A stretch of DNA of 64,000 bases, taken from IMG/VR virus record IMGVR_UViG_3300042554_001750. One strand, given 5' to 3'. Shown here one piece after another: positions 43,358 to 43,594 of this stretch. Positions within the stretch are counted from its first letter, which is position 1; each line of letters opens with the position of its first letter. Origin of the DNA: a virus (Duplodnaviria > Caudoviricetes). A program made the position numbers and the translations under genes. Under the pieces are notes generated by a model. That model ran no database searches, was not told the DNA's origin, and saw only the letters and a list, made by a program, of their open reading frames with translations.

Positions 43358-43534
43358 CTAGAAGAATGGCAATTGAGTTTTCTTAGTTGTTTCTAAGTTA
43401 TCATCAATAATTTTACTTAGGGCTTCTCTTTCTTGGGCTGACATATTCAATACATCAACATAAGATACCCCACCCCGCATATACCATGAAAATCTTAAAG
43501 CCGTTTCTTTTATAAGATTGGTTTCTTTTTCCAT
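43358..43534 (-). CDS. gp51: gp51-like baseplate-hub assembly chaperone (58 aa from ATG; frame is open back to 43588); absent from the ORF track
   Basis: MEKETNLIKETALRFSWYMRGGVSYVDVLNMSAQEREALSKIIDDNLETTKKTQLPFF*. The S-Y-x(3)-LNM-x(3)-R pattern resembles gp51-like proteins of T4-like phages. Confidence 0.72.
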   Translation of the reverse strand: MEKETNLIKETALRFSWYMRGGVSYVDVLNMSAQEREALSKIIDDNLETTKKTQLPFF

Positions 43535-43544
43535 GCCATCAAGT

Positions 43545-43594
43545 AGCTTCTTGACCTCTTCGGGTTTTAGGTTAAGAAGCTTTAGGCGAAAAAA
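43545..43594 (-). promoter_or_regulatory. Predicted -1 programmed ribosomal frameshift signal
   Basis: Slippery T_TTT_TTC (43594-43588), 6-nt spacer GCCTAA, stem-loop AGCTTCTT-A-ACCT/11-nt loop/AGGT-C-AAGAAGCT (43581-43545). Confidence 0.72.

Follow-up and report, generated by a model that had tools for sequence, protein, structure and literature searches.

The DNA analysed here, called the window throughout, is a 64,000-nucleotide stretch from a freshwater giant phage that is related to T4. Its genes include those for a gp6-like wedge protein, a gp5-like hub/lysozyme protein, a gp46/47-like nuclease, the portal, the prohead protease and the major capsid protein. A single 6498-aa ORF (7488-26984, minus strand) adjoins the gp6-like baseplate wedge gene and probably encodes a giant fibre or adhesin-type virion protein, and a homing-endonuclease gene (phrog_655; 54374-55111, plus strand) directly follows the major capsid gene. 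The locus of interest holds a gp26-like gene, an overlapping second frame and a divergent neighbour, laid out in the window as follows.

44464..48288, plus strand: divergent 1274-aa gene, coiled-coil-rich, with a C-terminal lysozyme/SLT-like domain
44446..44453, minus strand: TATAAATA box, T4-type late promoter consensus, ~40 nt 5' of the gp26-like ATG, found by pattern search
44420-44417: GGAG Shine-Dalgarno (SD) sequence, between the TATAAATA box and the gp26-like ATG
43582..44406, minus strand: gp26-like baseplate-hub assembly chaperone gene, zero frame, encoding the 274-aa short product; TAA stop at 43584-43582
43588..43594, minus strand: slippery heptamer T_TTT_TTC in X_XXY_YYZ register, codons GAT TTT TTC
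43545..43581, minus strand: hairpin, candidate frameshift stimulator, 6 nt 3' of the heptamer, with an 8-bp + 4-bp stem and an 11-nt loop
43361..43588, minus strand: -1 frame extension of 76 codons, RLKLLNLKPEEV...WYMRGG...LPFF; TAG stop at 43360-43358
43532..43534, minus strand: internal ATG of a 58-aa ORF, which is what a gene caller would report

The 274-aa protein matches the Pfam family PF12322 (T4_baseplate) with an E-value of 3.7e-16 and 59.9 bits (cut-off 24.5), the match spanning residues 46-274 of the protein and model positions 23-219, and it also matches phrog_150, baseplate hub. Relatives at 25-32% identity are found in T4-related giant phages, namely Atu_ph07, Phosso, PA5oct, XaC1, XacN1, the 121Q/Rak2 group, Yen9-04, SCTP-2 and a Vibrio phage. 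On the minus strand the ORF ends ...AAC GTT TCT GAT TTT TTC GCC TAA. Six bases, GCCTAA, separate the heptamer from the hairpin and include the zero-frame stop codon, and the two strands of the hairpin are AGCUUCUU-A-ACCU and AGGU-C-AAGAAGCU. The -1 frame is blocked by a TGA one codon 5' of the heptamer and then reads FF/RLKLLNLKPEEVKKLLDGMEKETN...LPFF as far as the TAG; a shift at this point is predicted to yield a long product of 273 + 76 = 349 aa alongside the short one of 274 aa. All of these elements (the gene end, the heptamer, the 6-nt spacer, the 8+4-bp stem with its 11-nt loop, the 274- and 349-aa products and a -1 frame open from the heptamer through LPFF to a stop) had been described in an initial annotation of this DNA and are confirmed by the sequence and its translation.

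Contigs from three additional runs belonging to different studies (X10, X12, X16) carry the T-run without an indel, and it is identical in lake and freshwater metagenome contigs from other studies. Because independent metagenome assemblies show no indel across it, the T-run is not an assembly error.

The window carries four exact TATAAATA boxes (30901-30908, 44446-44453 and 56513-56520 on the minus strand, 36454-36461 on the plus strand), a number below chance (shuffle mean 10), and at least two of the four lie directly 5' of minus-strand genes, the gp26-like gene included. The boxes are consistent with T4-type late promoters, their presumed function.

The divergent neighbour is a putative tape-measure or tail-lysin protein, judging by its size, its coiled-coil character and its lysozyme-like C-terminal part. 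A weak SLT match and matches to phrog_30077/18972 fall within residues ~1060-1170 only, and tblastn matches are confined to residues ~1000-1190, the lysozyme-like part. As this is the only part with homologues, the tape-measure identity is not confirmed; of the head-to-head pairing with a tape measure gene that had been proposed, the divergent arrangement stands, while the identity of the partner is putative. Large divergent virion structural genes occupy the equivalent position in PA5oct, XaC1, Ecwhy_1 and Yen9-04, and in the PA5oct record the neighbouring gp335 is marked as found by ESI-MS/MS and gp336, the gp26-like counterpart, is not, a hint that it may be absent from the virion.

Conservation of the heptamer and of the -1 frame

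The comparison covers 64 complete homologous loci, namely 54 IMG/VR contigs, nine GenBank jumbo phages (Atu_ph07, PA5oct, 121Q-like and XacN1 among them) and the window. The IMG/VR loci show 31-85% identity, and the protein set as a whole is 25-85% identical. Over this range an in-frame T_TTT_TTY is present in every one of the 64 loci, as T_TTT_TTC in 63 and as T_TTT_TTT in XacN1. The zero-frame stop always follows within 1-11 codons of the heptamer, and the -1 frame is always shut 1-13 codons 5' of it and open for 70-79 codons 3' of it. Throughout, the relation between the frames is -1 and the opening falls exactly at the heptamer.

The choice of codons at the site is equally constant. The codon preceding the T-run is always NNT though its meaning varies (GAT, AAT, AGT, CAT, TAT, GCT), and the first Phe codon of the heptamer is always TTT across the 64 loci. 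Elsewhere in the same genes TTT makes up 72% of Phe codons and NNT 65% of comparable codons; for the combination of NNT and TTT, a rough chance product over 41 non-redundant loci, with their relatedness ignored, is ~4e-14. The significance of the cassette comes from its conservation in 64 of 64 loci, as the single sequence taken alone is not beyond chance. In E. coli, few -1 motifs shift as efficiently as those of the H_HH.U_UU.Y class, to which U_UU.U_UU.C belongs (Sharma et al. 2014, PMC4066793); for the IS3 constructs of that study a background of ~0.07% is reported when no motif is present.

Part of the conservation of TTT TTC must be attributed to constraint on the protein, because the FF residues are retained at the protein level in T4 gp26 too. 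Taken to its end, this argument would make the heptamer a mere by-product of the FF motif and of codon bias, and the -1 ORF an unexpressed frame or a decaying remnant. The hairpin z-score in the window, which is modest, would fit such an account, as would a short paralog on contig L071 that keeps the heptamer without an extension. Yet an unexpressed frame of 76 codons would not stay open, constant in length and periodic across proteins that are 25-85% identical; the extension recurs as an in-frame domain of paralogs; and controls that lack a following extension do not keep the heptamer. We therefore give the absence of recoding next to no weight. Instead, programmed -1 frameshifting very probably gives the gp26-like gene two products, one short and one long, as the initial annotation had predicted from the window, and this prediction is borne out by the conservation across all loci, by the coding character of the extension and by natural fusions, to which we now turn.

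The extension and its natural in-frame fusions

The extension has the consensus R[LIM]RLL..PEE[IV]...WYMRGG...ER...NLETTKK..LPFF. In the stretch from the heptamer to the point where the window has its ATG, the mean pairwise identity at the three codon positions of the -1 frame is 0.42/0.61/0.34, a periodicity that, on the aligned nucleotides, is the pattern of coding sequence. Conserved residues (R3, LL and PEE[IV]) also sit 5' of this ATG. The 58-aa ORF itself has no match in Pfam or PHROGs, and in GenBank records the extension is either annotated as a separate hypothetical protein or absent. The AlphaFold2 (AF2) model of a natural fusion (P0020; pLDDT 95, pTM 0.90) has a well-ordered helical tail, and the extension is, in this model, a small conserved helical domain.

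These GenBank annotations point to the most obvious competing account, in which the downstream ORF is a small gene of its own, started at the ATG at 43534 or by termination-reinitiation, and no fusion is made. Such an ATG does exist in the window; gene callers deliver stand-alone peptides of 44-98 aa; and an ATGA start-stop overlap that could permit coupled reinitiation occurs in six of 48 distinct loci, Atu_ph07 and Phosso among them. Conservation of the start is lacking, however. Met occupies the position of the window's ATG in just 18 of the 48 distinct extensions, the first Met being scattered in the others, and the PA5oct extension, which is unannotated, contains no Met at all. A pattern search of the sequence found neither an SD nor a TATAAATA late-promoter box 5' of the ATG at 43534, in agreement with what had been noted initially, and this ATG is probably not a functional start. 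A separate gene would moreover leave unexplained why coding periodicity and conserved residues extend 5' of its start, why the frame is invariably -1 and opens precisely at the heptamer, and why natural fusions join at the same point. We consider it very improbable.

Searched against 1.84 billion proteins, a profile built from 32 extensions retrieved 576 at E<=1e-3. The majority are 40-146 aa long and called on their own, with inconsistent starts that scatter across profile positions 1-39. Among the best 150 of the 576, about 25 are proteins of 319-351 aa that carry the extension at their C-terminus. All eight fusion proteins that were scanned have an N-terminal PF12322 domain and the same junction (...F/R.kLI..., the slash marking the joint) with no slippery run. 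Four contigs were examined, and in each of them the gene for the long protein is directly preceded by that for a short PF12322 paralog of 276-297 aa; one of the four is a 327-kb phage contig with matching synteny. A single PF12322 locus is present in each of the complete genomes of Atu_ph07, PA5oct, Ecwhy_1 and XacN1, and T4 has two. The same short and long pair is thus encoded in three ways, since a frameshift gene, tandem paralogs and the divergent genes 26 and 51 of T4 all occur.

The heptamer follows this distribution. It is lost where no extension follows, in T4 gp26 (GAG TTC TTT) and in two of the four short paralogs, and none of the three long-paralog junctions that were located carries it. 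Of the short paralogs, the one of the two-gene phage L071 (411-1295) ends ...AAT TTT TTC ACT GAT AAC AAA TAA, with a -1 frame that closes at once, and the one on contig L076 carries AAT TTT TTA. The heptamer retained on L071 may be left over from a frameshift gene in an ancestor.

RNA structure downstream of the heptamer

RNAfold reproduces the hairpin of the window, with a minimum free energy (MFE) of -16.7 kcal/mol for 71 nt and a z-score of -1.39 against shuffles and -1.74 against the local background. The position of the hairpin, six bases from the heptamer, agrees with that of stimulatory structures, which generally begin 5-8 nt 3' of the motif (PMC4066793). Across the family, a 60-nt segment beginning 4 nt 3' of the heptamer exceeds the local background in stability in 33 of the 41 non-redundant loci; the mean z is -1.34, and ten of the 41 reach z<-2. 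Clade-specific stems occur at the same place, for instance GGCUUCU/AGAAGCY, GGAUCUU/AAGAUCC and an 11-bp stem in XacN1. Notable structure is missing in the clades L049-L055, L025, L030 and L042 and in Yen9-04.

For the stem of the window itself, 70% of cells are paired in register in an alignment of 20 sequences, compared with 34-48% when the register is slid. In the same 20 sequences no covariation rises above shuffles, and RNAalifold found no common structure in an ungapped alignment of 40 sequences. An SD-like 4-mer lies upstream in only four of 47 loci, and a stimulator of that type is not conserved. Of the two things expected from an alignment of gp26 3' ends, a conserved TTT-TTY and compensatory changes in the stem, the former is found in all 64 loci, whereas the stem is not universal and its covariation does not exceed that of shuffles. 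Because this evidence is mixed and several clades are without notable structure, we rate the hairpin a plausible stimulator, common rather than universal and not essential.

The same region bears on a further account, namely that RNA polymerase adds one U within the U6 run and so produces the long form by transcriptional slippage. A homopolymer run is present, and XacN1 has a longer one of T7. Since an extra U would give an identical protein, sequence alone cannot separate transcriptional from ribosomal slippage. Nonetheless, the run comprises just six residues, and the runs known for efficient transcriptional slippage exceed six; the loci preserve both the X_XXY_YYZ register and the 3' C/T; and structure tends to follow at a spacing typical of ribosomal stimulators. 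Slippage by the polymerase accordingly strikes us as a slender prospect, and a shift made by the ribosome is the reading that we retain.

Rfam had no match for the whole window or for 42800-43400. Close to the end of the extension there is a second candidate RNA of interest. Between a PDDEXK/RusA-like gene and the end of the extension ORF lies an ORF-free stretch (42875-43300, plus strand) with an MFE of -137 kcal/mol and a z-score of -4.35 against shuffles. It keeps 66-80% nucleotide identity in 24 related loci, where the flanking proteins are only ~50% identical, and RNAalifold on 14 of its sequences returned 66 consensus pairs, with compensatory changes on both sides in 30 of these. Rfam contains no match to this stretch even at E<=1. 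From its folding and conservation it looks like a new conserved structured RNA.

T4 gp26 and gp51 and other two-product systems

Leiman et al. (PMC3004832) list T4 gp26 and gp51 as chaperones of hub assembly with an unexplained mechanism, and gp51 is not part of the virion. Both match the full PF12322 model, gp26 over residues 1-206 of 208 and gp51 over 1-201 of 249, which leaves gp51 with ~48 extra C-terminal residues beyond the domain. The link to T4 genes 26 and 51 drawn in the initial annotation thereby finds firm ground, both being full-length PF12322 proteins. The window protein belongs to this common family and has the same two Cys pairs. T4 gp26 stops right after the FF motif, and the tail of gp51 aligns with the second half of the extension, which is longer (76 aa in the window phage as against ~48 aa in gp51). 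The genetic arrangement differs, T4 having two diverged and divergently transcribed genes without a slippery site and the window phage one gene with a frameshift.

How far the tails are related was assessed with profiles. Tails alone, compared by hhalign with the gp51 family profile, gave a probability of 84% and an E-value of 7.8e-6 over 37 columns, which is a remote similarity. The natural-fusion family and the gp51 family at full length gave an E-value of 1.2e-4 and a probability of 55%, in an alignment that runs end to end through the tails. Comparison of the extension profile with the single sequence of T4 gp51 by hhalign produced no significant match, only a spurious one at 4%. PF28602, a newer Pfam family, is recorded on the T4-type gp51 homologues P0151-P0242 and not on the long-form homologue P0020. 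In the BFVD, the fold matches of the P0020 long-form model are hub proteins of many myoviruses only. From these profile alignments, homology between the extension and the gp51 tail is probable, and it is well supported by the domain layout that the long form is of gp51 type and the short form of gp26 type in architecture. What does not survive is the designation of the downstream ORF alone as gp51-like: that ORF has no Pfam or PHROG match, and it is the whole long product that matches the architecture of gp51.

A further comparison is with the tail-assembly chaperones of other long-tailed phages. As in lambda gpG/gpGT and P2 E/E+E', a tail-assembly gene would yield two products with a common N-terminus through a -1 shift close to its 3' end; as in lambda, the gene adjoins a (here putative) tape-measure gene and a chaperone role is expected. 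The differences are nonetheless considerable. Lambda-type genes sit between the tube and tape-measure genes on the same strand, while the window gene is divergent from the putative tape-measure gene and has no tube gene adjacent to it. The products of the window gene, 274 and 349 aa, are larger than the ~140 and ~280 aa of lambda gpG and gpGT, and its heptamer is U_UUU_UUC in place of the G_GGA_AAG of lambda.

Searches for a deeper relationship were negative. The gp26-like protein matches no tail-assembly-chaperone (TAC) family in Pfam or PHROGs. A Foldseek comparison with tail assembly chaperones had been proposed at the outset; the P0020 long-form model has no match in the PDB at E<=1e-3. 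VIA-align of the P0020 model against 48,000 PDB representatives reached a best Z of 6.2, for the small helical tail only, and a fold search of AFDB Swiss-Prot with the long-form model brought nothing informative. Membership in the lambda G/GT tail-assembly-chaperone family is not supported, these searches giving no sequence or fold link and the gene order being different. The equivalence with lambda G/GT that was originally suggested consequently holds for the strategy, a short and a long product by a -1 shift, and finds no support in family, fold or gene order; because no sequence or fold link was found, the resemblance is one of strategy only.

E. coli dnaX offers another parallel, outside of phages, as its tau and gamma forms are two forms of one assembly factor made by -1 frameshifting at a heptamer with a downstream hairpin. 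In dnaX the shifted product is the shorter form, whereas in the window it is the longer one, and dnaX combines A_AAA_AAG with an upstream SD-like stimulator of the kind that is rare among the loci studied here.

The following sequence of events would account for the pair. Most ribosomes would stop at the TAA and release the 274-aa short form. A fraction would pause with tRNA-Phe on UUU in the P site and on UUC in the A site, probably helped in the window phage by the hairpin 6 nt downstream, and both tRNAs would slip back by one base onto UUU UUU, after which 76 further codons would be read in the -1 frame. The resulting long form of 349 aa would bear the small helical domain at its C-terminus. 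The counterpart of the short form would be T4 gp26 and that of the long form T4 gp51; other phages use two tandem genes for this pair, and both forms are presumably needed at a fixed ratio for assembly of the complex of central hub and tape measure. The signal and its conservation, the coding character of the extension, the natural fusions and the pattern of gene counts are shown directly; that ribosomes perform the shift, the rate at which they do so and the binding partners of each form are inferred.

A broader scenario can be put forward tentatively, with somewhat less than even confidence. The PF12322 pair might be a non-homologous functional counterpart of lambda G/GT, in which the common part holds the gp29-like tape measure and the tail of the long form docks this tape measure to the hub or tube initiator. 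A single frameshift gene might then be ancestral, and T4 and some jumbo phages might have become two-gene systems later, by a duplication in which the tail was fused in-frame in one copy and lost in the other, so that the AAT TTT TTC of L071 would be a fossil.

Reviews describe frameshift-made tail-chaperone pairs as near-universal and conserved in long-tailed phages, with T4 as the stated exception ("except T4"; Atkins et al. 2016, PMC5009743). Full-text searches of the literature and GenBank annotation yielded no report of a frameshift at a PF12322 gene, in keeping with the initial annotation, whose author had not been aware of one in this group. A frameshift-made chaperone pair in a non-homologous family, and in a lineage thought to be without one, would be new. 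It would also correct many phage genome annotations, which either miss the extension or treat it as a hypothetical protein of its own. What T4 gp26 and gp51 do in hub assembly has been obscure for decades (PMC3004832). If one gene supplies both a gp26-type and a gp51-type protein throughout a clade of giant phages related to T4, the two T4 proteins would be the short and long forms of one chaperone, which provides a testable hypothesis for the function of gp26 and gp51.
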